From contig SVLO01000002.1 of NCBI GenBank assembly GCA_015067885.1, forward strand, positions 36,606 through 100,605: a stretch of DNA of 64,000 bases, written 5' to 3'. Position numbers and translations under genes: made by a program. Shown here in pieces: positions 11,386 through 22,819 of this stretch; within the stretch, counting starts at the first letter, position 1, and each line of letters starts with the position of its first letter. The notes beneath the pieces are model-generated. The model had not been told where the DNA came from. It worked only from the letters and a program-made list of their open reading frames with translations, and made no database searches. The stretch is from Oscillospiraceae bacterium. GTDB lineage: Bacteria > Bacillota > Clostridia > Oscillospirales > Oscillospiraceae.

Positions 11386-12120
11386 TCAAATAACCAGGCC
11401 GCCATTGGGCTGCAGCACCTGGCCGGTGACAAAGCTGCCCTCCTCCCCGGCAAGAAACAGGATGCTCCGGGCCGCGTCCTCCGGCGCGCCCAATTGCTGC
11501 AGGGGCGTTTCCTGTCGCAACTGCTCCAGGCTCTCCCCATCCAGATGGGCATTCATGTCGGTGGCAATAAAGCCGGGCGCCACGCAATTGACCCGGACGC
11601 CTGAGGGACCCAGTTCCTTGGCAAGGGCTTTCGTCATAGCGATCACCGCCCCCTTGGCAGCGGAATAGGCCACCTCACAGGAGCCGCCCGTCACCCCCCA
11701 CATGGAGGACAGGGTGACAATGCTGCCCGACTTCTGCCGGACAAAATAGGGTGTTGCCGCCCGCAGGGTATAGAACGTGCCGTCCACGTTGACGGCAAAC
11801 ATCTGCCGCCACTGGTGGTCGGTGGTGTCGGTCATCAACTGTTGGGGCAGGGCGATCCCCGCGCTGCACACCAGCGCGTCCAAACCGCCCAGGGCGGCCA
11901 CAGCCTGCTCTACCAAAGCCGAGGCCTGCTCCGGATGGGAAACGTCCGCCTGAATGGCACAGGCATTTGCGCCCAAGGCTTTCATCTGCTCTACCACAGT
12001 ATGCGCCGCCGTCGCGTTGGTATGATAACCAATAGCCACATTCCAGCCTTTTTGCGCAAACAGCAGCGCCGCTGCCGCGCCAATTCCCCGGGAACCTCCG
12101 GTGATAAGCACCTTACTCAT
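11386..12120 (-). CDS. SDR oxidoreductase, FabG/YmfI-like
   Basis: TGGSRGIG; SSMWGVTGGSCEVAYSAAKG resembles the YmfI (EF-P 5-aminopentanone reductase) subfamily. Confidence 0.85.
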   Translation of the reverse strand: MSKVLITGGSRGIGAAAALLFAQKGWNVAIGYHTNATAAHTVVEQMKALGANACAIQADVSHPEQASALVEQAVAALGGLDALVCSAGIALPQQLMTDTTDHQWRQMFAVNVDGTFYTLRAATPYFVRQKSGSIVTLSSMWGVTGGSCEVAYSAAKGAVIAMTKALAKELGPSGVRVNCVAPGFIATDMNAHLDGESLEQLRQETPLQQLGAPEDAARSILFLAGEEGSFVTGQVLQPNGGLVI

Positions 12121-12947
12121 TCCAACCCCTCCAATGCCGCGCGGGCCGCCGCCCCGAGGGCCGCTTCGTCCAGCGTTTCATCGGCAAAATGCTCCAGGGC
12201 GAACACACCCTGCCATATCAGCATACCAAGTCCGTTGGAATTTTGCAACCCCAGTCGCTCCGCCCGCTCCAGCAGGGCGGTCTTGCGGGGACTGTAGATA
12301 AGGTCGTACACCCCGGCATGGGCGGGTAAACACTCCAAAAAGGACAGGTCCTCGAACTGCCCCGCCACCCCGGTCATGCCAAGATTGGTGCAGTTGACCA
12401 CCAAATCGCTTTTGGCGGCATATTCCGAAAGGGTCTGTGCGGAAAAATCACAGGCCGTCGCCCCAAATTCGGCGCACAGCTTTTCCGCCCGCTCCACGGT
12501 GCGGTTGGCAACCACCGTTTCCGCCCCTGCTTCCACCAGCTTATGCACCACCGCCCGGGCCGCGCCGCCGGCGCCCAGCACCAGCACGTCCTTGCCCGCG
12601 GGGCCCATGCCCGCCTCCACCAACGCCCGCAAAAACCCGCGCCCGTCGGTGTTGTATCCATAGGCCACGCCGCCCCGGATGGCGACGGTATTCACCGCCC
12701 CCAGTTGACGGGCCTCACGGTCCAACTCGTCCACCAGGGGGACCAGGTTTTCCTTATGTGGCATGGTGGCATTGAACCCCCCATACCCCTCCGCCTTGGC
12801 CCGGGCAAGCCACCGGGCGGTTTCCGCCCCCGCCACCCGGCAGGCGCCGTATGCAAAGTCCAGCCCCGCCGCGGCGATCATGGCGTTTTGAATGACCGGG
12901 GACAGGGAGTGATCAATGGGGTCCCCGATAACACAAAGCTTTTTCAT
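12117..12947 (-). CDS. aroE: Shikimate dehydrogenase
   Basis: HSLSP, NATMPHK, GAVNT, NTDG and GAGGAA motifs. Confidence 0.95.
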   Translation of the reverse strand: MKKLCVIGDPIDHSLSPVIQNAMIAAAGLDFAYGACRVAGAETARWLARAKAEGYGGFNATMPHKENLVPLVDELDREARQLGAVNTVAIRGGVAYGYNTDGRGFLRALVEAGMGPAGKDVLVLGAGGAARAVVHKLVEAGAETVVANRTVERAEKLCAEFGATACDFSAQTLSEYAAKSDLVVNCTNLGMTGVAGQFEDLSFLECLPAHAGVYDLIYSPRKTALLERAERLGLQNSNGLGMLIWQGVFALEHFADETLDEAALGAAARAALEGLE

Positions 12948-13378
12948 CCCCGTCCACCCTTCAAAAAGTGGTCCATGGCCATGGTGTACCCCGCAAAACC
13001 GTGGCCATAGAGCTGGCCCACGCAGGCCGGGGCGGTGACGGAGATGGCCCGGAAGCTCTCCCGGCTGTCAATGTCGGAAATATGCACCTCATAGGCCGGC
13101 ACATCCACCGCCTTCAGCGCGTCCAGAATGGCGTAGCTGTAGTGGGTGTACGCCCCGGGGTTGATGACGATAGCATCGTACACCCCATCGGCGGCGTGGA
13201 TGGCGTCGATGATGGCCCCCTCGTGGTTGGACTGGAAGCAATCGGCGCAGCTGCCGTTGGCAGCGGCATACTCACACACCAGGTTGCACAAATCCTCATA
13301 GGTTCCCTTGCCGTAGATGTCCGGCTCCCGCTTGCCCAGCAGGTTCAGGTTGGGGCCGTTGATGATCAAAAACTTCAT
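12944..13378 (-). CDS. aroQ: Type II 3-dehydroquinate dehydratase
   Basis: NGPNLNLLGKREPDIYG, QSNHEG, NPGAYTHYS and EVHIS motifs. Confidence 0.96.
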   Translation of the reverse strand: MKFLIINGPNLNLLGKREPDIYGKGTYEDLCNLVCEYAAANGSCADCFQSNHEGAIIDAIHAADGVYDAIVINPGAYTHYSYAILDALKAVDVPAYEVHISDIDSRESFRAISVTAPACVGQLYGHGFAGYTMAMDHFLKGGRG

Positions 13379-13881
13379 GTTTCACACTCCTGTGCGTACA
13401 GGGCGGCGATCTGTTCCGCCGCCTGCTGCGCTGTTTGGGTGTCCGTAATGGTATGGTGGGCATATTTGCGGTACAGGTGGATGCGCTGGTCATAGAGCTG
13501 ATACAGCCGGTCCGTATCTGCCCCCACCAGGGGTCGGCCGGACATATCCTGCCCGGCGATATCCGCCACCGGCCGGTCCCGGAAAAAGACGATGCCCGTG
13601 GCAGACAGGGCCTGCATATTCTCCTCCCGCAGCACCATGCCGCCACCGGTGGCGATGATGGTCCCCTCCATGGCGGCGGCGGTTTGGGCCGCGGCGCGCT
13701 CCATGTCCCGGAAAGCGCCCTCGCCAAATTGCTCAAAAATCTGCGGGATTGTCATGCCACGCGCCTGCTCCACCATGGCGTCGGTGTCCACAAGGGGCAT
13801 ATCCAGCATATCGCACAGCAACCGGCCCACGGCGCTTTTGCCGCAGCCGGGCATACCGATGAGTACGATGTTTTTCCTCAT
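13375..13881 (-). CDS. aroK: Shikimate kinase
   Basis: GMPGCGKS, FGEGAFRDME, ATGGG and RPL motifs. Confidence 0.95.
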   Translation of the reverse strand: MRKNIVLIGMPGCGKSAVGRLLCDMLDMPLVDTDAMVEQARGMTIPQIFEQFGEGAFRDMERAAAQTAAAMEGTIIATGGGMVLREENMQALSATGIVFFRDRPVADIAGQDMSGRPLVGADTDRLYQLYDQRIHLYRKYAHHTITDTQTAQQAAEQIAALYAQECET

Positions 13882-13888
13882 AGCGCCC

Positions 13889-15043
13889 TCACAGATTGGC
13901 CACAAAGTTGCCCAGCACCCGGAACCGGGCCGCGGTCTGGGACAGCTCGTGGAGAATTCCGTCCATCTCCGGGGCGTTCAGGTTGCCGGCAAACTCCAAA
14001 AAGAACATATACTCCCAGGTGTGGCCGGGCATGGGCCGGGACTCCAGCTTGGTCATATTCAGGCCGTTGACGGCGAAAATGCTCATAATACGGTGCAGAC
14101 TGCCCGCCTCGTGAGGCAGGGAAAACACGGTGCTGATCTTATCCGCCCCCGGCCGCAGCTCCATCACCGGGCTGACCACCACAAAGCGGGTGGTGTTGTC
14201 TGCGTTGTGGTTGGTACCGCGGACCAAAATTTCCAGACCGTACAGCTCCGCCGCCCGCTCCGAGCAGATGGCCGCCTTGGTAACGTCCCCGGTCTGGGCC
14301 ACGTACTGCCCCGCCCCCGCCGTGTCGGCGCAGGGCACCTGCACCCAATGGGGGCGGGTGTTGAGGAAGTGGTCGGACTGGAACAGTCCCTGCTCGTGGG
14401 AGTAGACGTGGGTAATGGTATCAAGGCTGGCCCCCTGGGGCGCCATCAGGCAATGCTCTACCCTCACCGTGGTCTCCCCCACGATGTAGCAGTCGTACTC
14501 GCTCATCAGGTCGTAGACCTGCCGAATGGCGCCGCTGGTGCTGTTCTCAATGGGCAGCACAGCGTAGTCCGCCCGCCCGTCCTTCAGCGCCCGGAACACG
14601 TCCTCAAACTGTTCCAGCCCAACGTTTTCCGATGTATCACCGAAAAAGTTGATGCAGGCCATCTCGCTGTACGCTCCCGCCACCCCCTGGTAGGCTACCC
14701 GGGGGTTGGCGATGGGCGTGCGGGCCGTCGCCATAGCCTTTCTGCAGCGGTCATAGTCGGGGTCGCCGCCCCCTTCGTCGATCAGCTTGCGCTGACGGCG
14801 GCGGCTGATGGCCATAAGGTTTTCAAACATGGCGGTCAGGTCGGCGCTCATGGCCGCATCCCGGGCAAGGGCGGCCTTTTGAGCCAGCACCTCCTGTTCC
14901 CGGCGGCTGTCCAGCACGGCCATGCCCCGCTGCAGCTTGTACTGTCCCACCTTATCCACCACCGCCATGCGCTGCTGGAACAGGTCGGCCAACTGTCGGT
15001 CAATGGCGTCGATCTCTTCCCGATATTGCTTCAATCCGTCCAT
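13889..15043 (-). CDS. pheA: Chorismate mutase / prephenate dehydratase
   Basis: N-terminal AroQ CM domain; PIENS, NTTRF and ACT ESRP motifs. Confidence 0.95.
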   Translation of the reverse strand: MDGLKQYREEIDAIDRQLADLFQQRMAVVDKVGQYKLQRGMAVLDSRREQEVLAQKAALARDAAMSADLTAMFENLMAISRRRQRKLIDEGGGDPDYDRCRKAMATARTPIANPRVAYQGVAGAYSEMACINFFGDTSENVGLEQFEDVFRALKDGRADYAVLPIENSTSGAIRQVYDLMSEYDCYIVGETTVRVEHCLMAPQGASLDTITHVYSHEQGLFQSDHFLNTRPHWVQVPCADTAGAGQYVAQTGDVTKAAICSERAAELYGLEILVRGTNHNADNTTRFVVVSPVMELRPGADKISTVFSLPHEAGSLHRIMSIFAVNGLNMTKLESRPMPGHTWEYMFFLEFAGNLNAPEMDGILHELSQTAARFRVLGNFVANL

Positions 15044-15060
15044 TTGGACACCTTCTTTAC

Positions 15061-16107
15061 TCAAATACCCAGCAATTCGCAGGCGGCCAGGGCTGCCGCC
15101 GCCTCGATCACAGGCACGGCCCGATGGACCACGCAGGGGTCGTGGCGGCCCTTCAGCTCCAGCTCGGCGTTCTCCATCTTCTCCATGTCTACCGTAAACT
15201 GGGTGCGGGCGATGGAGGGGGTGGGCCGCATGGTCACCTCAAAGGTCAGGGGCATACCGTTGGTAATGCCGCCGTTGATGCCGCCGGCGCAGTTCTGCTC
15301 GGCCTTGACGGTGCCGTCATCATCCACGTAGAGGGGGTCGTTCGCCTCCGACCCGCGCATAAGGGCGAAGGCCGCCCCGGCGCCGAAGCCAACGGCCTTG
15401 ACCGCAGGCACGGCGAAGAGATACCGGGCAAAGATGCCCTCGGCGTTGTCCCACATATCCGGGCCGCCAAGGCCTACGGGCAGGCCGAACACGCCGCACT
15501 CAATGCTGCCGCCCACGCTGTCCCGTTCCTCTTTCGCCTCCAAAATGGCGGCCTTCATTTCCTCCCCGGCCCCGTCGTCCAGCACGGGGAAATCCTTGTC
15601 CGCCACCGCCTGCAAAGAGGTCAAATCCTCCATGGCGGCGTCAGAAATGCCGTAAATACCGCTAATATGGGCGCCCACGAACACGCCCCTTTGGGCCAAA
15701 AGCTGCTTGGCCACCGCCCCGGCAAAGACCAGGGGTGCCGTCAGCCGCCCGGAGAAGTGTCCTCCGCCCCGATAGTCGTTGCAGCCGTTGTAGCGCACGT
15801 GGGCGGGCCAGTCGGCGTGGCCGGGCCGGGCCAGGTTTTTGGTGGCCTCATAGTCCCCGGAGCGGGTATCGGCGTTGTCAATGGTAGCGCACAGGGGGGC
15901 GCCGGTGGTCCTTCCTTCAAACACGCCGGAGAGAATTTTGATCTCGTCCCCCTCCCGCCGTGGGGTGGACAGGCCGTCCCCCTTGGGTCGGCGGCGGTCC
16001 ATCTCTTTGGCCACCGCCTGCATATCCAGCTCCAATCCCGCGGGAACACCCTCCAGCACCACGCCGATGGCCGGGCCGTGGGACTCGCCAAAGATGGTAT
16101 ATTTCAT
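15061..16107 (-). CDS. aroC: Chorismate synthase
   Basis: FGESHG, RPGHAD, RGGGHFSGR, GGINGGITNG and GRHDPC motifs. Confidence 0.96.
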   Translation of the reverse strand: MKYTIFGESHGPAIGVVLEGVPAGLELDMQAVAKEMDRRRPKGDGLSTPRREGDEIKILSGVFEGRTTGAPLCATIDNADTRSGDYEATKNLARPGHADWPAHVRYNGCNDYRGGGHFSGRLTAPLVFAGAVAKQLLAQRGVFVGAHISGIYGISDAAMEDLTSLQAVADKDFPVLDDGAGEEMKAAILEAKEERDSVGGSIECGVFGLPVGLGGPDMWDNAEGIFARYLFAVPAVKAVGFGAGAAFALMRGSEANDPLYVDDDGTVKAEQNCAGGINGGITNGMPLTFEVTMRPTPSIARTQFTVDMEKMENAELELKGRHDPCVVHRAVPVIEAAAALAACELLGI

Positions 16108-16108
16108 C

Positions 16109-17338
16109 TCAAACCGCTCCTTCCACGATTTGTCCGCCCAGCAGGCGGTAGTCCCGCCAAAAGGCGGGATAGGACTTGTTCACGCACTCCGCCCCAAGCA
16201 CCGCCACCGGCTGTTGGCAGCGGGTGGCCGCCACCGCCGCCATCATGGCAATGCGGTGGTCGTTGTGGCTGTCAATGGTCACGCCGCCCACAAGGGCCGC
16301 CTTGCCCACGACGGTCAGACTGTCCGCCCCCTCGGTCACGTCCGCGCCCATGGCGTTCAGCACGGCGGCCACAGCGGTCAGCCGGTCGCTCTCCTTAATG
16401 CGCAGCCGGGCGGCGTTGACGATTTGGGTCGTACCCTGTCGCACCGCCGCCATGGCGGCCAGCGCCGGAACAAGGTCGGGACACTGGGACACGTCGATTT
16501 CCACGTGGCCGGGTCGCCCGAGTTGCTCGTAACAACCGGCAACTGCCTTGTCCCCCTGGGTGGAGTGGGCGTCCATACCCAAAATCTCCACCTCGCCGCC
16601 CAGAGCGCGGGCGGCGTACCAAAAGGCCGCCTGGGACCAGTCCCCCTCCACCGTCACGGCGGCGGGGCGATAGGTCTGATCGCCGGGGACAAGCAGGGTC
16701 TGCTCCCCCTCCCAGCGGGCGGTCACGCCGAACTGTCCCAGGGCGTCCAGGGTCATATCCACGTAAGCCCGGCTCTCCAGCGGGGTTGTAATGACAATAC
16801 GGCTGTCCCCCTCCAGCAGGGGCAGGGCGTAGAGCAATCCGGTAATAAATTGGCTGGACACGTCACCGGGCAGAGGGTAGTCCCCGGGGGTCAAACGACC
16901 CTCCAGCCCCGCTTTGTCCTCATAGCGGGCGTAGTAAATGTCTTTCGTTTCGAAGATGTCGAAATAGGGCTTCAAGGGCCGCTCCATCAGCCGCCCGTGG
17001 CCGGTGAAGCTGCCGCCCCCCGCCACCGCAAGGGCGATGGGGATGAGAAAGCGCAGGGTGGACCCGCTCTCTCCGCAGTCGAAAAACAGCGGCTTCCCGC
17101 CGTCAAAGCCGCCGCCCCGGCCCACTACGTGCAGGCCGTCTTCCTCCTGCCACACCCGGGCGCCGAGGACACGGATACAGGCGGTGGTGGCCTCGATATC
17201 CTTGGACGGGGACAGGTTCCTGATGACACTCTCCCCCTGAGCCAGCGCCGCCGCCAGCAGCAGACGATGTCCCTGGGACTTGGAGGTGGGTGGCATAACA
17301 GTTCCGGCCAACTTGCCCGGTGTGATGGTCACGTTCAT
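16109..17338 (-). CDS. aroA: EPSP synthase
   Basis: SKSQGHR, CGESGSTLRF, SSQFITG, LRIKESDR and DHRIAM motifs. Confidence 0.96.
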   Translation of the reverse strand: MNVTITPGKLAGTVMPPTSKSQGHRLLLAAALAQGESVIRNLSPSKDIEATTACIRVLGARVWQEEDGLHVVGRGGGFDGGKPLFFDCGESGSTLRFLIPIALAVAGGGSFTGHGRLMERPLKPYFDIFETKDIYYARYEDKAGLEGRLTPGDYPLPGDVSSQFITGLLYALPLLEGDSRIVITTPLESRAYVDMTLDALGQFGVTARWEGEQTLLVPGDQTYRPAAVTVEGDWSQAAFWYAARALGGEVEILGMDAHSTQGDKAVAGCYEQLGRPGHVEIDVSQCPDLVPALAAMAAVRQGTTQIVNAARLRIKESDRLTAVAAVLNAMGADVTEGADSLTVVGKAALVGGVTIDSHNDHRIAMMAAVAATRCQQPVAVLGAECVNKSYPAFWRDYRLLGGQIVEGAV

Positions 17339-18426
17339 ACCTTCACCTGCCGCTCATGCAGCACTTCCAGCCGGGCCAGCAGGTCGGCCATGGCCATTTC
17401 CTCCGTGCGGGCGCTGCCCACGGACTCCAACAGTACCACCCGGATACCGCCGTCCCCCCGCTTTTTGTCCCTGCACACCGCGCGCTCCATCACGTCCCGG
17501 GGGCAGGGGATGTGGTGGGGCAGTTCAAATTGCGTCAGCAGCGCGGCGATCTCGTCCTCCACGCTCTCCGGGGTGACTCCCAGCGCCGCGCCCAGCCTGG
17601 CGGCCCACAGCATACCCACCGCCACCGCCTGGCCGTGGGTCCATTTCTCATAGTTCCCGGCCACCTCGAAGGCGTGGCCGATGGTGTGGCCGAAGTTCAG
17701 CAGCATACGCAGGCCGCTCTCCCGCTCGTCGGTACCCACGATGTCTGCCTTGATGGCGCAGCAGGTGTACAGCACCTGCTCAATGCGCTCCATGACCCCG
17801 GCACGGCTGCCGCAATCGTTCAGCAGACGGAAGAATTCCCCATCCCGGATGCAGCCGTACTTGATGACCTCCGCCATGCCGTCGGAGAAAATGCGGTCGG
17901 ACAGGGTGTTCAGGCAGTTGGGGTCCATCAGCACCAGCTTGGGCTGCCAAAAGGCGCCCGCCAAATTCTTGCCCGCGGGCAGGTCAATGGCGGTCTTGCC
18001 CCCCACGGAGGAGTCCACCTGGGCCAGCAGAGTGGTGGGAATTTGCACTAGATCCACTCCGCGCAGCACCGTGGCCGCGGCAAAACCGGCCAGGTCGCCC
18101 ACCACGCCGCCGCCCAGGGCCACCACGGCATCGGTGCGGCTCAGGCCGAAGTCCAGCATTTCGCCGTACAGCCGGCCCAGCATTTCAAGGCTCTTGGAAC
18201 TCTCCCCGGCGGGGACCACGATGCCATGCACCGCAAACCCGGCGGCGGTCAGGCTCCGCTCCACCCGCTGAAAATACAGGGGCGCCACATTGCTGTCGGT
18301 GACCACCGCAAGGCGGCGCGCCCGGGGGCAGACCGTGCGGATATGCTCCCCCGCCCGGTCCATCAGGCCCGACTGGATATGAATGTTATATTCCCGGCCC
18401 GGCAGGGCCACGGTCAGGGTTTTCAT
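17335..18426 (-). CDS. aroB: 3-dehydroquinate synthase
   Basis: GGGVVGDLAGF, PTTLLAQVDSSVGGK and LNFGHTIGHA motifs. Confidence 0.96.
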   Translation of the reverse strand: MKTLTVALPGREYNIHIQSGLMDRAGEHIRTVCPRARRLAVVTDSNVAPLYFQRVERSLTAAGFAVHGIVVPAGESSKSLEMLGRLYGEMLDFGLSRTDAVVALGGGVVGDLAGFAAATVLRGVDLVQIPTTLLAQVDSSVGGKTAIDLPAGKNLAGAFWQPKLVLMDPNCLNTLSDRIFSDGMAEVIKYGCIRDGEFFRLLNDCGSRAGVMERIEQVLYTCCAIKADIVGTDERESGLRMLLNFGHTIGHAFEVAGNYEKWTHGQAVAVGMLWAARLGAALGVTPESVEDEIAALLTQFELPHHIPCPRDVMERAVCRDKKRGDGGIRVVLLESVGSARTEEMAMADLLARLEVLHERQVKV

Positions 18427-18436
18427 GGCAAACACC

Positions 18437-19459
18437 TTACCTCACAAAGGTTTTCCCCATCAGCTCCACCAGGGCGGCGGACTTGCCCATCAGGTGGGCG
18501 AACTGCTCCGGGGTCAGGGACTGCTGTCCGTCGCACTTGGCGTGGGCGGGGTCGTTGTGTACCTCGATGATCAGGCCGTCGGCACCGGCGGCGATGGCAG
18601 ACATGGCCAGGGGTTCCACCAGCCAGTGGTAGCCGCCGGCGTGGGAGGGGTCCACCACCACGGGCAGGTGGCTCATGCGCTTGAGCATGGGGATGGCAGA
18701 CACGTCGAAGGTGTTGCGGGTGGCGGTTTCAAAGGTGCGCACGCCCCGCTCACACAAAATCACGTTCTCGTTGCCCTCCGCCATAATGTACTCGGCGGAC
18801 ATGACCCACTCCTCATAGGTGTTGGACAGACCCCGCTTGAGCAGCACAGGCTTGGACATCTTACCCACCTCTTTCAGCAGGTCGAAGTTCTGCATATTCC
18901 GGGCGCCCACCTGCACCAGGTCCACCTTTTCCTCAAAGACCTCGCAGTACTTGGGACTCATGATCTCGGTGACCACGGGCAGGCCGGTGTCCTGATGGGC
19001 CTCCAGCAGCAGCTCCAGCCCGTCCAGGCCCATACCCTGGAAGGAGTAGGGGGAGGTGCGGGGCTTGAAGGCGCCGCCCCGGAGCATGGCCGCGCCGGCG
19101 GACTTCACGTCCCGGGCCACCTGAATGATCTGCTCCTCGCTCTCCACGGAGCAGGGGCCGGCCACCACGGTAAAGCTGTCGCCGCCCACGGGAACCCCGG
19201 CGGCGGTGACGATGCTGTCCTCGGGGTGGAACTTGCGGTTGGCCTTCTTATACGGCTCCTGCACGCGCATGACGCGCTCCACGCCGGGGATCATTTCCAG
19301 CTTGTGCATATCCAGATGGGCGGTGTCGCCCACCAGACCCAAAATGGAGCAGCCCACGCCGTGGGTGATGCCCACCTGCACCTGTTCCTGCTGCTCCAGG
19401 CGAATGACAAGCTCGTGGATATCCTCCTGGGGCGTACCCGGTTTCATGATTATGACCAT
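18437..19459 (-). CDS. aroF: DAHP synthase type I-beta with N-terminal ferredoxin-like regulatory domain
   Basis: AGPCSVES, RGGAFKPRTSPYSFQG, GARNMQN, LKRG and DPSH motifs. Confidence 0.95.
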   Translation of the reverse strand: MVIIMKPGTPQEDIHELVIRLEQQEQVQVGITHGVGCSILGLVGDTAHLDMHKLEMIPGVERVMRVQEPYKKANRKFHPEDSIVTAAGVPVGGDSFTVVAGPCSVESEEQIIQVARDVKSAGAAMLRGGAFKPRTSPYSFQGMGLDGLELLLEAHQDTGLPVVTEIMSPKYCEVFEEKVDLVQVGARNMQNFDLLKEVGKMSKPVLLKRGLSNTYEEWVMSAEYIMAEGNENVILCERGVRTFETATRNTFDVSAIPMLKRMSHLPVVVDPSHAGGYHWLVEPLAMSAIAAGADGLIIEVHNDPAHAKCDGQQSLTPEQFAHLMGKSAALVELMGKTFVR

Positions 19460-19492
19460 ACAAATATCATCCTTTCCTTGTGTCCGTCAGGA

Positions 19493-19532
19493 CAAACAAA
19501 AGGGCGCTCATTGATGAACTCAATGAGCGCCC
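19493..19532 (-). terminator. Attenuator terminator in the aro operon leader
   Basis: 13-bp perfect stem GGGCGCTCATTGA-GTTCA-TCAATGAGCGCCC followed by TTTTGTTTG, lying between the promoter and aroF. Confidence 0.9.
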
Positions 19533-19572
19533 AAATCTACTTTGGTACTGCTATCCCACCTGTGCGGGCCAC

Positions 19573-19677
19573 TCATCCGTTCATCGTTTTGTCCATGCCA
19601 AAAAAGCCGGCGCCCATAAATCGAGCCCAGCCAAACGCAAAATACACGGATGCAGTTGTGACGGTGTTGTGACGCAT
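19573..19677 (-). CDS. Aromatic-rich leader peptide (34 aa) MRHNTVTTASVYFAFGWARFMGAGFFGMDKTMNG
   Basis: Hand-translated; RBS GAGGTG 7 nt before ATG; 5 Phe, 1 Tyr and 1 Trp within codons 12-26; below the ORF-track size cutoff. Confidence 0.8.
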   Translation of the reverse strand: MRHNTVTTASVYFAFGWARFMGAGFFGMDKTMNG

Positions 19678-19707
19678 ATTTGCACACCTCACAGAAAATA
19701 TGGCCTT

Positions 19708-19736
19708 ATTATACTCTCATCCAAACAGAATTGCAA
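19708..19736 (-). promoter_or_regulatory. SigA promoter of the aro operon
   Basis: TTGCAA(19731-19736)-N17-TATAAT(19708-19713). Confidence 0.8.
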
Positions 19737-19747
19737 CTATTAAAACG

Positions 19748-19767
19748 CGATTTTTCGCGTTAAAGTG
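19748..19767. promoter_or_regulatory. Candidate TrpR/YerC-family operator
   Basis: Minus strand CACTTTAACGCGAAAAATCG; resembles the sites at 5583-5602 and 28186-28205. Confidence 0.45.
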
Positions 19768-19787
19768 AAAAAGTTTTTTATTTACTC

Positions 19788-19816
19788 TTGACAAACAATC
19801 AAAAACGCGTTACACT
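19788..19816 (+). promoter_or_regulatory. SigA promoter of the thiamine transport operon
   Basis: TTGACA-N17-TACACT. Confidence 0.75.
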
Positions 19817-19827
19817 TGCCAGCACAA

Positions 19828-19910
19828 TGGGGAGTCCGAATTGACGGGCTGAGAGTCGGATGTTTTCCGAGACCCTTTAACCTGATCTGGATCATGCCAG
19901 CGTAGGGAAC
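19828..19910 (+). ncRNA. TPP riboswitch aptamer
   Basis: GGGGAGTC...GGGCTGAGAG...GACCCTTTAACCTGATCTGGATCATGCCAGCGTAGGGAA hallmark segments, upstream of thiamine genes. Confidence 0.96.
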
Positions 19911-19959
19911 ATATATTTGCGTTGTTGTATTCTGCCTATAACGACCGCAGATCTGTTTT

Positions 19960-19996
19960 GTGCCTTCGCCGGGATGTCCGGCGAGGGCACTTTTTT
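19960..19996 (+). terminator. Riboswitch expression-platform terminator
   Basis: GTGCCTTCGCCGG-GATGT-CCGGCGAGGGCAC-TTTTTT. Confidence 0.85.
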
Positions 19997-20015: not shown

Positions 20016-20315
20016 ATGAAAGCAAGCGTTGCCATTCAAACTCTGCCGGCTGCCCCAAACGACGAGGAACTGGTCCGTATCGTGGACGAGGTCATCGCCT
20101 ACATCAAAAGCACAGGCCTGAACTACTACGTAGGGCCGTGCGAGACCGCCATTGAGGGGGACGACTACGACCAGCTCATGGACGTGGTGAAACAATGCCA
20201 GCACGTGGCCATCCGGGCCGGCGCCCCCAGCGTCAGCGCCTACATCAAGGTCACTTATAAACCGGAAGGCGAGGTCCTGACCATTGACAAAAAAGTTACC
20301 AAGCATCACCAATAA
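20016..20315 (+). CDS. Thiamine/HMP-binding protein (MTH1187/YkoF-like)
   Basis: VDEVIAYIKSTGLNYYVGPCETAIEG; RBS AGGAGG; first gene after the TPP riboswitch. Confidence 0.88.
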   Translation: MKASVAIQTLPAAPNDEELVRIVDEVIAYIKSTGLNYYVGPCETAIEGDDYDQLMDVVKQCQHVAIRAGAPSVSAYIKVTYKPEGEVLTIDKKVTKHHQ

Positions 20316-21063
20316 ACTGCCCGCTTTGGCCGCAGTAACCATTCTTTTGCTTTTGTGGCAGGCGGTGTGCGGCACAAATCTTGTCCCGGCCTATATGCTC
20401 CCCTCCCCGGTGGACGTACTGCGGGCCTTTTGGGCCGAGCGCGCCCTGCTATGGGAAAACGCCCTGATCACCCTGCAGGAGGCCTTTATCGGCCTGGGGC
20501 TGGGCGTCCTTTTGGGACTCACCTTTGCCACGGTCATGGACGCCATCCCCCTGCTGCGCCGGGCGGTCTATCCCATTTTACTTCTCACCCAGACCGTACC
20601 CACCGTGGCCATCGCCCCCCTGCTGGTACTGTGGCTGGGCTACGGCCTGCTGCCCAAGATCGTTCTCATCGTCCTGACCACCTTTTTCCCCGTGACTGTG
20701 GGCCTGCTTGACGGCTTCGCCGCCGCCGACCCGGACGCGGTCAACCTGCTGCGCTCCATGGGTGCCGGAAGATGGCAGATATTCCGGTACATCAAATTCC
20801 CCGGCGCGCTGGGCCAGTTCTTTTCCGGCCTGCGCATTGCCGCGGCTTACTGCGTGGTGGGTGCCGTCATCAGCGAGTGGCTGGGCGGCTTCGGCGGCCT
20901 GGGCGTGTATATGACCCGGGTGAAAAAGGCCTTTGCCTTTGACAAGATGTTCGCCGTCATCCTTCTCATCAGCGCCGTTTCTTTGGCGCTGATGGCGCTG
21001 GTGGACGTGGCCGGTCGGCTGTGCATGCCCTGGCAGCGAACTTCGGAAACAAACAACAAATAA
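20284..21063 (+). CDS. ABC transporter permease (ThiX/TauC type)
   Basis: LPSP, QTVPTVAIAP, LLRSMGA and GAVISEWLGG motifs; TTG start. Confidence 0.9.
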   Translation: MTKKLPSITNKLPALAAVTILLLLWQAVCGTNLVPAYMLPSPVDVLRAFWAERALLWENALITLQEAFIGLGLGVLLGLTFATVMDAIPLLRRAVYPILLLTQTVPTVAIAPLLVLWLGYGLLPKIVLIVLTTFFPVTVGLLDGFAAADPDAVNLLRSMGAGRWQIFRYIKFPGALGQFFSGLRIAAAYCVVGAVISEWLGGFGGLGVYMTRVKKAFAFDKMFAVILLISAVSLALMALVDVAGRLCMPWQRTSETNNK

Positions 21064-21080
21064 GATAAGGAGTCTTTACT

Positions 21081-22085
21081 ATGAAACACAAATTCCGTTG
21101 GCTTGCCGGCCTGCTGGCTGGTATCCTCGCCCTTTCCCTGTGCGCCTGTTCCGCCCCCGCAAGCGACGAACCCACCCTTGAAAAAATCACCTTCGTGCTG
21201 GACTGGACCCCCAACACCAACCACACCGGCCTGTACGTGGCCCTTGCCAAGGGCTGGTTCGAGCAGGCGGGGCTGGAGGTGGAGGTGGTGCAGCCCCCCG
21301 CCGACGGGGCGGAGGTGCTGGTGGCCTCGGGCAAGGCCCAGTTCGGCGTGTCCTTTCAGGACTCTATGGCTCCGGCCCTGAGCGGCACCTCTCCCCTGCC
21401 CATCACGGCGGTGGCGGCGGTCATTCAGCACAACACCTCCGGCATCATCTCCCGGGCCGGGGAGGGTATGCACACCCCCGCCGGTCTTGCCGGGCATAAG
21501 TACGCCACCTGGGATTCCCCGGTGGAGAAAGCCACCATCGCCCACGTCATGGCCGCCGACGGCGGCGACTTTGACACCGTGGAGCTGATCCCCTCCACCG
21601 TCACCGACGAGGTGTCCGCCCTGGAGAGCCGCAGCGTGGACGCCATTTGGGTCTTTTACGCCTGGGCGGGTATCGCCTGTCAGACCGCCGATTTGGACAC
21701 GGACTATTTCGCCTTTGCGGATATGGACCCGGTCTTTGACTTCTACACCCCGGTCATCATCGCCGGCAACGACTTCCTCTCCCAAAAGCCGGACACCGCC
21801 CGGGCCTTCCTGTCCGCCCTGGCACAGGGCTATGAATTCGCCGCCGAGCATCCCGACGGGGCCGCCGAAATTTTGATGGACGCCGCCCCCGAGCTGCGCG
21901 CCAACGAGGCCTTGGTCCGGGCCAGCCAGCAGTATCTGGCCGACCGCTACACCGCCGAGGCCGCCCGCTGGGGCGAGTTTGACCCCGATCGCTGGGCCGC
22001 CTACTACAACTGGCTGGACCGGGAGGGTCTAGTGGCGGAGCTTGACCCCAACACCGGCTTCACCAACGACTTTTTGCCCGGCTGA
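21081..22085 (+). CDS. NMT1/THI5-like substrate-binding lipoprotein (ThiY type)
   Basis: LSLCAC lipobox; LDWTPNTNHTGLYVA motif. Confidence 0.92.
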   Translation: MKHKFRWLAGLLAGILALSLCACSAPASDEPTLEKITFVLDWTPNTNHTGLYVALAKGWFEQAGLEVEVVQPPADGAEVLVASGKAQFGVSFQDSMAPALSGTSPLPITAVAAVIQHNTSGIISRAGEGMHTPAGLAGHKYATWDSPVEKATIAHVMAADGGDFDTVELIPSTVTDEVSALESRSVDAIWVFYAWAGIACQTADLDTDYFAFADMDPVFDFYTPVIIAGNDFLSQKPDTARAFLSALAQGYEFAAEHPDGAAEILMDAAPELRANEALVRASQQYLADRYTAEAARWGEFDPDRWAAYYNWLDREGLVAELDPNTGFTNDFLPG

Positions 22086-22819
22086 TGGCGCTGCTGGACG
22101 TACGCTCGGTCAGCAAAGCCTTTGGTGACCGCCCGGTTTTGGCCGGGGTGGACCTGACCGTGGAACCCGGTGAGTTGGTGTGCCTGCTGGGTATCAGCGG
22201 CGGCGGAAAGACCACTTTGTTCCACATCATCTCCGGCCTGCTGACCCCCGACGATGGCCGGGTCCTGCTGGAGGGCGAGGACGTCACCGGCCAGCCCGGC
22301 CGGGTGAGCTATATGCTGCAAAAGGACCTGCTGCTGCCCTACCGCAGGGTGCTGGACAACGTGATTTTGCCCCTGCTGCTGCAGGGGGTGAAGCGGGACG
22401 AGGCCCGGGCCCGGGCGCAGGAACTGTTTGCCACCTTCGGTCTGGAGGGTACCCAGCAGCTCTACCCCGCCCAGCTCTCCGGCGGTATGCGCCAGCGGGC
22501 GGCCCTGCTGCGCACCTACCTGTTCTCCCGCAAGCTGGTGCTGCTGGACGAGCCATTCTCCGCCCTGGACGCCCTGACCAAATCCGCCATGCACCGCTGG
22601 TATTTGGACGTGATGGAGCGCCTGCCCGTGTCCACCCTGTTCATCACCCACGATGTGGACGAGGCCATCTTGCTCTCTGACCGGATCTGTCTGCTGTCCG
22701 GTACCCCGGGGCGCATCACTCACCAAATTACCGTTCCCCACCCCCGTCCACGGGACAAGGAGTTCGCCCTGTCCCAAGAGTTTTTGGACTGCAAGCGGCA
22801 TATCCTTAGCCTGCTGTAA
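22085..22819 (+). CDS. ABC transporter ATPase (ThiZ/TauB type)
   Basis: GISGGGKT, LSGGMRQR, LLDEPFSALD and THDVDEA motifs. Confidence 0.93.
   Translation: MALLDVRSVSKAFGDRPVLAGVDLTVEPGELVCLLGISGGGKTTLFHIISGLLTPDDGRVLLEGEDVTGQPGRVSYMLQKDLLLPYRRVLDNVILPLLLQGVKRDEARARAQELFATFGLEGTQQLYPAQLSGGMRQRAALLRTYLFSRKLVLLDEPFSALDALTKSAMHRWYLDVMERLPVSTLFITHDVDEAILLSDRICLLSGTPGRITHQITVPHPRPRDKEFALSQEFLDCKRHILSLL

Follow-up and report, generated by a model that had tools for sequence, protein, structure and literature searches.

What controls the eight-gene operon aroF-aroB-aroA-aroC-pheA-aroK-aroQ-aroE, which occupies the minus strand of the window, the 64,000-nucleotide stretch of Oscillospiraceae DNA analyzed here? 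Clostridia are thought to control their amino-acid genes mainly via T-boxes and repressors. The initial annotation of this DNA read the region upstream of aroF as a ribosome-stalling attenuator, and this reading is supported by the relatives of the leader, by covariation of its helices, and by the lack of a T-box in Rfam scans of the region. Judged from its sequence, the leader most likely controls the shikimate/Phe operon as a ribosome-mediated (leader-peptide) transcription attenuator. The features concerned, all given in window positions, are as follows.

19708..19736, minus strand: sigma-70-type promoter, with the -35 box TTGCAA at 19736-19731, a 17-nt spacer, and the -10 box TATAAT at 19713-19708
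19685..19690, minus strand: Shine-Dalgarno (SD) sequence GAGGTG of the leader, 7 nt 5′ of the ATG at 19677
19657..19693, minus strand: helix P0 of the minimum-free-energy fold, formed by UGUGAGG of the SD region and ..UCACA of codons 5-7; its loop contains the start codon
19573..19677, minus strand: leader ORF of 34 codons plus UGA, the latter at 19575-19573
19638..19652, minus strand: 5′ strand of P1 as folded (region 1, the anti-antiterminator), covering codons 9-13 and including Y12 and F13
19605..19632, minus strand: P2 hairpin within the ORF, GGCUGGGCUC paired with GGGC-G-CCGGCU around the loop GAUUUAU, then a U-run at 19605-19600
19574..19591, minus strand: 3′ strand of P1 as folded, CAAAACGAUGAACGGAUG, overlapping the antiterminator strand and the stop codon
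19565..19586, minus strand: 5′ strand of the antiterminator (region 2), with its partner at 19532-19512 and the leader stop codon inside
19493..19532, minus strand: intrinsic terminator, with a 13-bp stem (19532-19520/19514-19502), the 5-nt loop GUUCA, and a U-tract at 19501-19493
12117..19459, minus strand: operon aroF-aroB-aroA-aroC-pheA-aroK-aroQ-aroE, all genes above or near the curated NCBIfam cut-offs
11386-12120, minus strand: SDR-family gene, with a 4-nt overlap with the aroE stop

The succession of promoter, RBS, 34-codon ORF, 13-bp terminator, and aroF had been described previously and was recovered by direct reading of the minus strand, with aroF starting at 19459. The promoter was read directly and was also picked up by a consensus scan, with 10 of 12 matches; the TTGCAATT of the promoter region is identical in all four same-genus sequences aligned, and transcription would start approximately 7 nt past the -10 box. 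Seven of the 34 leader codons are aromatic (Y12, F13, F15, W17, F20, F25, and F26), all five Phe codons being TTT, and the Arg-Phe pair R19-F20 is encoded by CGA-UUU at 19623-19618. The terminator hairpin (19532-19502) has a folding energy of -25.6 kcal/mol (z -8.4) and is followed by UUUUGUUUG. The helix CAUCCGU/ACGGAUG, originally proposed as a "protector" and here named P1, belongs to the minimum-energy fold, and the proposed antiterminator exists in a longer form, pairing 19586-19565 with 19532-19512. Two elements were absent from that first description, namely P0, which engages the SD with codons 5-7, and the P2 hairpin with its U-run inside the ORF.

The gene identities proposed for the operon agree with the NCBIfam assignments, among which pheA is a chorismate mutase/prephenate dehydratase. 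Its eight genes abut or overlap by 1-17 nt, and the SDR gene may constitute a ninth gene of the attenuated operon. In NCBIfam, the SDR gene scores best against the EF-P 5-aminopentanone reductase YmfI, reaching 245 bits where the cut-off is 238, and FabG-like models score nearly as high.

With respect to known RNA regulators, the initial annotation had noted no T-box motif, and the Rfam scans agree: a cmscan of 19400-19830 at E up to 10 returned no T-box or other relevant family, only chance miRNA/snoRNA matches on the terminator hairpin, while the T-box model (RF00230) yields 13 matches elsewhere in the same genome, six of them above the gathering score. A scan of the whole window at the gathering threshold reported the TPP riboswitch alone. 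Likewise, none of the models in Rfam 15, Pfam, or NCBIfam, among them Phe_leader (RF01859), Trp_leader (RF00513), and the leu/phe leader (RF01743), matches the leader family, and the leader peptide itself has no Pfam or NCBIfam match at E up to 10. The TPP riboswitch (59 bits, above gathering) lies at 19818-19990 on the plus strand, divergent from the aro leader, with a terminator-like hairpin at 19960-19990. It is followed at 20284-22819 on the same strand by a taurine/sulfonate (SsuA-like) ABC transporter comprising a permease, a binding protein, and an ATPase, which probably serves thiamine-precursor uptake and is ordinary-looking.

The question of whether this leader is a singular arrangement was answered by its relatives. 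A DNA search located three homologous leaders in the genus, one of which precedes aroA instead of aroF, and a four-peptide profile run in six frames against 300 family genomes gave dozens of clear matches across many genera, which were genuine at 30 of 30 fetched loci and at 20 weaker ones. An exact degenerate DNA core pattern, searched in one genome per species (185,579 species), identified 95 loci. According to the record titles, 94 of these belong to Flavonifractor, Intestinimonas, Pseudoflavonifractor, Lawsonibacter, Faecousia, Enterenecus, other Oscillospiraceae, or unclassified Clostridiales. The match in Halalkalibacter oceani was rejected as a leader: this 36-nt site on the minus strand is a plain hairpin plus U-run with no uORF, a chance terminator. 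It is the lone non-Clostridia match and shows that the P2 element alone resembles an intrinsic terminator. With a broader peptide profile, the leader turned up in 13 of the 26 family genomes drawn with the order, in 17 of the 112 from the window's own genus, and in none of 375 genomes of 29 sister families.

Altogether, 111 distinct leaders were collected, all from the family Oscillospiraceae, with Flavonifractor plautii ATCC 29863 and Intestinimonas massiliensis among the carriers. The gene that follows is aroF in 107 cases, aroA in one, and an aroK-aroE fusion in one, the remaining two leaders being located at contig ends, so that the family is associated exclusively with shikimate genes. 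An additional, divergent copy in front of an aroK-aroE fusion was found in another same-genus genome. Given its placement before aroA or the fused aroK-aroE in some genomes of the genus, the leader has moved between shikimate transcription units, and it is tied to the shikimate pathway rather than to aroF alone. All counts reported for these leaders are descriptive and non-independent, because the sequences are related and the pattern-found loci were selected with a pattern that contains the core. One genome carries two leader-aroF-aroB loci, and their AroF proteins share 72% and 86% identity with that of the window; the duplication is either real or the product of a mixed metagenome bin. Outside the family, most of the aroF loci examined from other Oscillospirales families have unrelated aromatic-rich uORFs and terminator-like hairpins upstream, with at least two recurring peptide types, one with the ending ..G.YFS.G.(L/F)CC.. 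and the other containing ..YFYFSFSF..YYGKA... These sequences suggest that several leader families serve aroF across the Oscillospirales; the phenomenon would thus be widespread in the order, with the Oscillospiraceae leader as one well-defined subfamily.

Comparison of the relatives revealed a consistent signature of translation. The homologous ORFs span 25-49 codons over the 111 distinct loci, and in all 111 an SD and an ATG are present and in frame, with length changes occurring in frame only. When SD-ATG candidates were picked blind to frame in the 111 relatives, 114 fell in the leader frame and only 4 and 2 in the other two. The distances from the ATG to the CGA codon (42, 45, 48, 51, 54, and 57 nt) are all divisible by three, and around codon 14 there are codon-sized insertions and one deletion, while the linker between the ORF and the terminator is frame-neutral (34/30/29). 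A second small ORF, running from AUGs on the antiterminator strand to a conserved UGA in the terminator arm, was considered and rejected, its frames being random (34/30/29).

This reading frame is also enriched in codons for the end products of the pathway. Aromatic codons account for approximately 26% of the leader and for 21% of its variable N-terminal part, compared with 5.1% in AroF. The ratio of TTT to TTC is 443:95 in the leaders versus 256:596 in aroF, and that of TAT to TAC is 109:31 versus 228:393. The sole Phe and Tyr tRNAs found in the genome have the anticodons GAA and GTA, so the leader prefers codons that are read by wobble. At three positions, Phe and Tyr codons (TTT/TAT) swap almost exclusively with each other. 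The proposal that one leader could integrate all three end products is supported in part: Phe is the dominant codon among the leader aromatics and is freely exchanged with Tyr at three sites, but there is a single Trp codon, UGG, which lies in the P2 stem and gives way to a Gln, Arg, Tyr, or Val codon in some members. Trp sensing is for this reason the least secure part of the three-product proposal.

The conserved aromatic-rich uORF and the covarying, mutually exclusive helices that the initial annotation had suggested seeking in relatives were both found, the former in 111 leaders and the latter for terminator, antiterminator, and anti-antiterminator alike, with pairing above the slid and shuffled controls. 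Folding and duplex searches were run on all leaders, and pair counts were made on an 83-sequence MAFFT alignment against slid partners and 500 shuffles. In these 83 sequences, the structure of the terminator state is paired in 80.6% of cells, compared with 38-49% for slid partners, and that of the antiterminator state in 80.7% (75-84% for the antiterminator strand), compared with 31-50%. None of the 500 shuffles reached the observed value for four of five measures, and one of 500 did so for the fifth. The terminator, present in every relative examined, is paired in 94.6% of cells, with 10 of its 14 pairs changed on both sides.

The partner of the antiterminator strand comprises the 5′ arm of the terminator, its loop, and the first bases of its 3′ arm. 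In the window, this duplex has an energy of -27.4 kcal/mol (z -5.3 against shuffles), and the folded domain reaches -30.3 kcal/mol (z -4.5); across the leaders, the duplex averages -20.8 kcal/mol with a median z of -3.0, and its 5′ half covaries with the terminator loop in relatives. P1 joins codons 9-15, among them the F/Y run, to a strand made up of the final sense codons, the stop codon, and the GGAUG that comes next. Its energy is modestly better than that of shuffles (median z -1.6), it displays compensatory changes (UUCUUC/AAGAGG, UUGCG/GCAAAG, and CCCGCUG/CAGCGGG), and in 96% of the 111 leaders at least 4 nt of its 3′ strand are shared with the 5′ end of the antiterminator. P2, at -14.3 kcal/mol in the window, covers codons 16-25 (17-26 in the family alignment); it is paired in 93% of cells in the 83 sequences, with fully compensated stems in some, for example CCUAUGCCC/GGGCAUGGG. 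The 3′ strand of P2 was also considered as an alternative antiterminator and set aside: it is complementary to the terminator arm in the window, and inspection by eye showed that this complementarity is not kept with other terminator sequences. P0 occurs as GUGAGG/CCUCAC in most relatives and in compensated variants such as UUUGAGG/CCUCAAA, with 60% of cells paired in the MAFFT alignment; the support that these sequences lend to P0 is moderate.

The leader thus contains an ORF with its own RBS and end-product codons, a terminator, a mutually exclusive antiterminator, a 1:2 helix, and a stop codon in a position to occlude region 2. Translation of the ORF, ribosome stalling, polymerase pausing, and a response to amino acids are what this arrangement would predict. 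A look-up of RNA sequencing runs listed none containing this DNA. Briefly, three helices would compete in the nascent RNA, P1, the antiterminator, and the terminator, with bases common to P1 and the antiterminator and others common to the antiterminator and the terminator. When Phe-, Tyr-, or Trp-tRNA is scarce, a ribosome stalled on the aromatic codons (11-27) would hold P1 open, leaving the antiterminator free to form and allowing read-through to aroF. When supply is good, the ribosome would proceed to the stop codon and cover the antiterminator strand, so that the terminator forms; if the leader is not translated at all, P1 would sequester the start of the antiterminator, again with termination as the outcome. 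P2 and its U-run are probably a pause signal for RNA polymerase and would hold the polymerase until the ribosome arrives, thereby synchronizing the two.

In 91% of the 111 leaders, the modelled footprint of a ribosome at the stop codon masks 4 nt or more of the antiterminator strand; in the other approximately 9%, the stop codon is too distant from that strand for simple occlusion. In the full-length leader, the terminator is favored almost everywhere when the footprint is masked at each aromatic codon or at the stop. Since the terminator is thermodynamically ahead wherever the ribosome sits, the switch would have to be kinetic, and in most members a transcript truncated before the 3′ arm of the terminator folds in agreement with the model. 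P0 counts against the attenuator reading, as it would impede translation of the leader.

The conservation of the leader at the nucleotide level exceeds the need of the attenuator model, the stems accounting for most of it, and two other explanations draw on this excess. The Arg codon is CGA in all 33 leaders found by the profile and in each member that was checked, despite CGA making up only 4.7% of the operon's Arg codons. Also fixed in the profile-found leaders are GGC (33/33), ACA (31/31), GCA (27/27), and CTC (27/27), as is ACU; ACA, ACU, GCA, and CUC are rare in the operon yet fixed here. Such invariance, together with the constant CGAUUU of the P2 loop, for which inspection found no pairing partner, and the resemblance of P1 enclosing P2 to a small aptamer, would suit an RNA that binds a ligand or a protein, acting as a riboswitch-like aptamer or as the target of an attenuation protein; binding would stabilize P1 and thereby favor termination, and the ORF would be incidental or secondary. 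An incidental ORF, however, would hardly be expected to keep an SD and an ATG universally and in frame, to tolerate indels only in frame upstream of a frame-neutral linker, or to maintain its aromatic enrichment in the variable N-terminal part. Moreover, the position of the stop codon follows that of the antiterminator strand, the junction 3′ of P2 is free to vary except at its Phe/Tyr codons, and no Rfam family matches; we therefore hold an RNA of this kind to be most unlikely. The same constancy could reflect a stall programmed at one site instead of a simple shortage of aromatic tRNA, with the ribosome either arrested by the nascent peptide ...GWARF(M/T)GxG(F/Y)F or slowed at CGA-UUU as a built-in slow-decoding site. 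Across genera R-F is invariant and G-W-A-R-F-x-G-x-G-x-F nearly so, and CGA is rare in the genome. UUU would be read by G-U wobble, and CGA can be decoded by an inosine (ACG) tRNA. No tRNA-Arg with the anticodon TCG was found in this 87% complete MAG, so that CGA is presumably read by the latter and slow decoding becomes conceivable; at that degree of completeness the tRNA could be missing from the assembly. Against a programmed stall, a pure peptide constraint would allow synonymous codons, of which there are none at the key positions, and the majority of the conserved residues fall within P1 and P2, whose covarying stems explain them. This explanation is accordingly given a low probability.

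A further possibility is that the leader reports general translation capacity or transcription-translation coupling, or that the product of the ORF is a small hydrophobic peptide with a separate function. P2 with its U-run does look like a pause or a weak terminator that a close ribosome would suppress, and the peptide is both hydrophobic and conserved; however, the leader occurs only with shikimate-pathway genes, in three gene contexts, its aromatic codons show a fivefold enrichment, with exchanges limited to Phe and Tyr, its C-terminal length is variable, and the peptide has no protein-family match, which makes this the least probable of the alternatives, with very little in our estimate left to it. 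A different proposal supplements the attenuator instead of replacing it: CGA-UUU in the P2 loop and the near-invariant GWARF..G.G.F peptide might form a purpose-built stall site, or an RNA/nascent-peptide sensor, layered on the classical mechanism. CGA would then be held as an I-A wobble pair in the P site with the wobble-read UUU in the A site, and P2 plus the U-run would act as a coupling checkpoint passing only polymerases with a ribosome close behind. We regard this addition as unlikely, if less so than the alternatives above.

With leader-peptide attenuation retained as the preferred reading, an abundant gut lineage, including the cultured Flavonifractor plautii, Intestinimonas, and Pseudoflavonifractor, appears from its sequences to possess a textbook attenuator layout for its whole shikimate/Phe operon. 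The mechanism is textbook and known principles are unchanged; the RNA family is uncatalogued. What is new, as read from these sequences, is the SD-sequestering helix, the nested hairpin with a U-tract inside the ORF, and the invariant rare CGA-UUU pair in its loop. Because Rfam 15, Pfam, and NCBIfam lack the family, its uORFs and terminators stand unannotated in thousands of gut genomes, an omission that a covariance model would remedy. Three covarying, densely arranged helices, together with a nested pause-like hairpin and an invariant rare-codon pair, also make the leader a compact system in which to study how transcription and translation are coupled in anaerobic Firmicutes.

Among known systems, the leu/phe leader of Lactococcus (Rfam RF01743) is a leader-peptide attenuator in another branch of the Firmicutes. 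His leaders have been predicted in the Bacillus cereus group, Peptostreptococcaceae, and Erysipelotrichales (PMC2965389, PMC9413887). Like the Oscillospiraceae leader, these Firmicutes His and leu/phe leaders represent classical attenuation in place of T-boxes in scattered lineages, but they concern other amino acids and operons and are unrelated in sequence.

The initial annotation had also noted that it knew of no description of such a leader in this lineage. This stands for the Oscillospiraceae, for which a literature search found no publication describing the leader family; the kind of leader, by contrast, is known, its nearest functional analogues being aroR-aroF (PMC11802643) and the uORFC-13-1 motif (PMC8632094). 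In Corynebacterium glutamicum, the aroR leader peptide precedes aroF, and transcription was shown experimentally to increase upon ribosome stalling under Phe limitation (Neshat et al. 2014, summarized in PMC11802643). As in the Oscillospiraceae, a short ORF with aromatic codons (Phe-Tyr-Phe) stands before a DAHP synthase operon (PMC11802643). The system differs in belonging to another phylum, in lacking sequence likeness, and in having three regulatory codons compared with 7-9 over approximately 16 codons here; Tyr was without effect there, and neither a nested hairpin nor an SD-sequestering helix is described for it. The uORFC-13-1 motif was predicted solely before aroF, with 24 representatives from Acholeplasma and environmental sequences (Brewer et al. 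2021, PMC8632094). It shares with the Oscillospiraceae leader a predicted uORF, a promoter, an RBS, a Phe-coding U-run, an extra base-paired element, and an adjacent terminator (PMC8632094). It differs, as far as a comparison by description allows, in containing "at least one" Phe codon, and the window region has no Rfam 15 match.

The regulatory logic is that of the enterobacterial pheL-pheA and trpL-trpEDCBA leaders, with the same 1:2, 2:3, and 3:4 pairing scheme, control codons in region 1, and a stop codon that blocks region 2; pheA is, moreover, among the genes regulated here, as it is in pheL-pheA. The Rfam models of these leaders (RF01859 and RF00513) do not match the present one, and its host is a member of the Clostridia, which otherwise rely on T-boxes, 13 being found in this genome. 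Finally, whereas pheL and trpL each sense one amino acid and govern a terminal branch, the Oscillospiraceae leader mixes Phe, Tyr, and Trp codons and is placed to govern the common pathway together with pheA.
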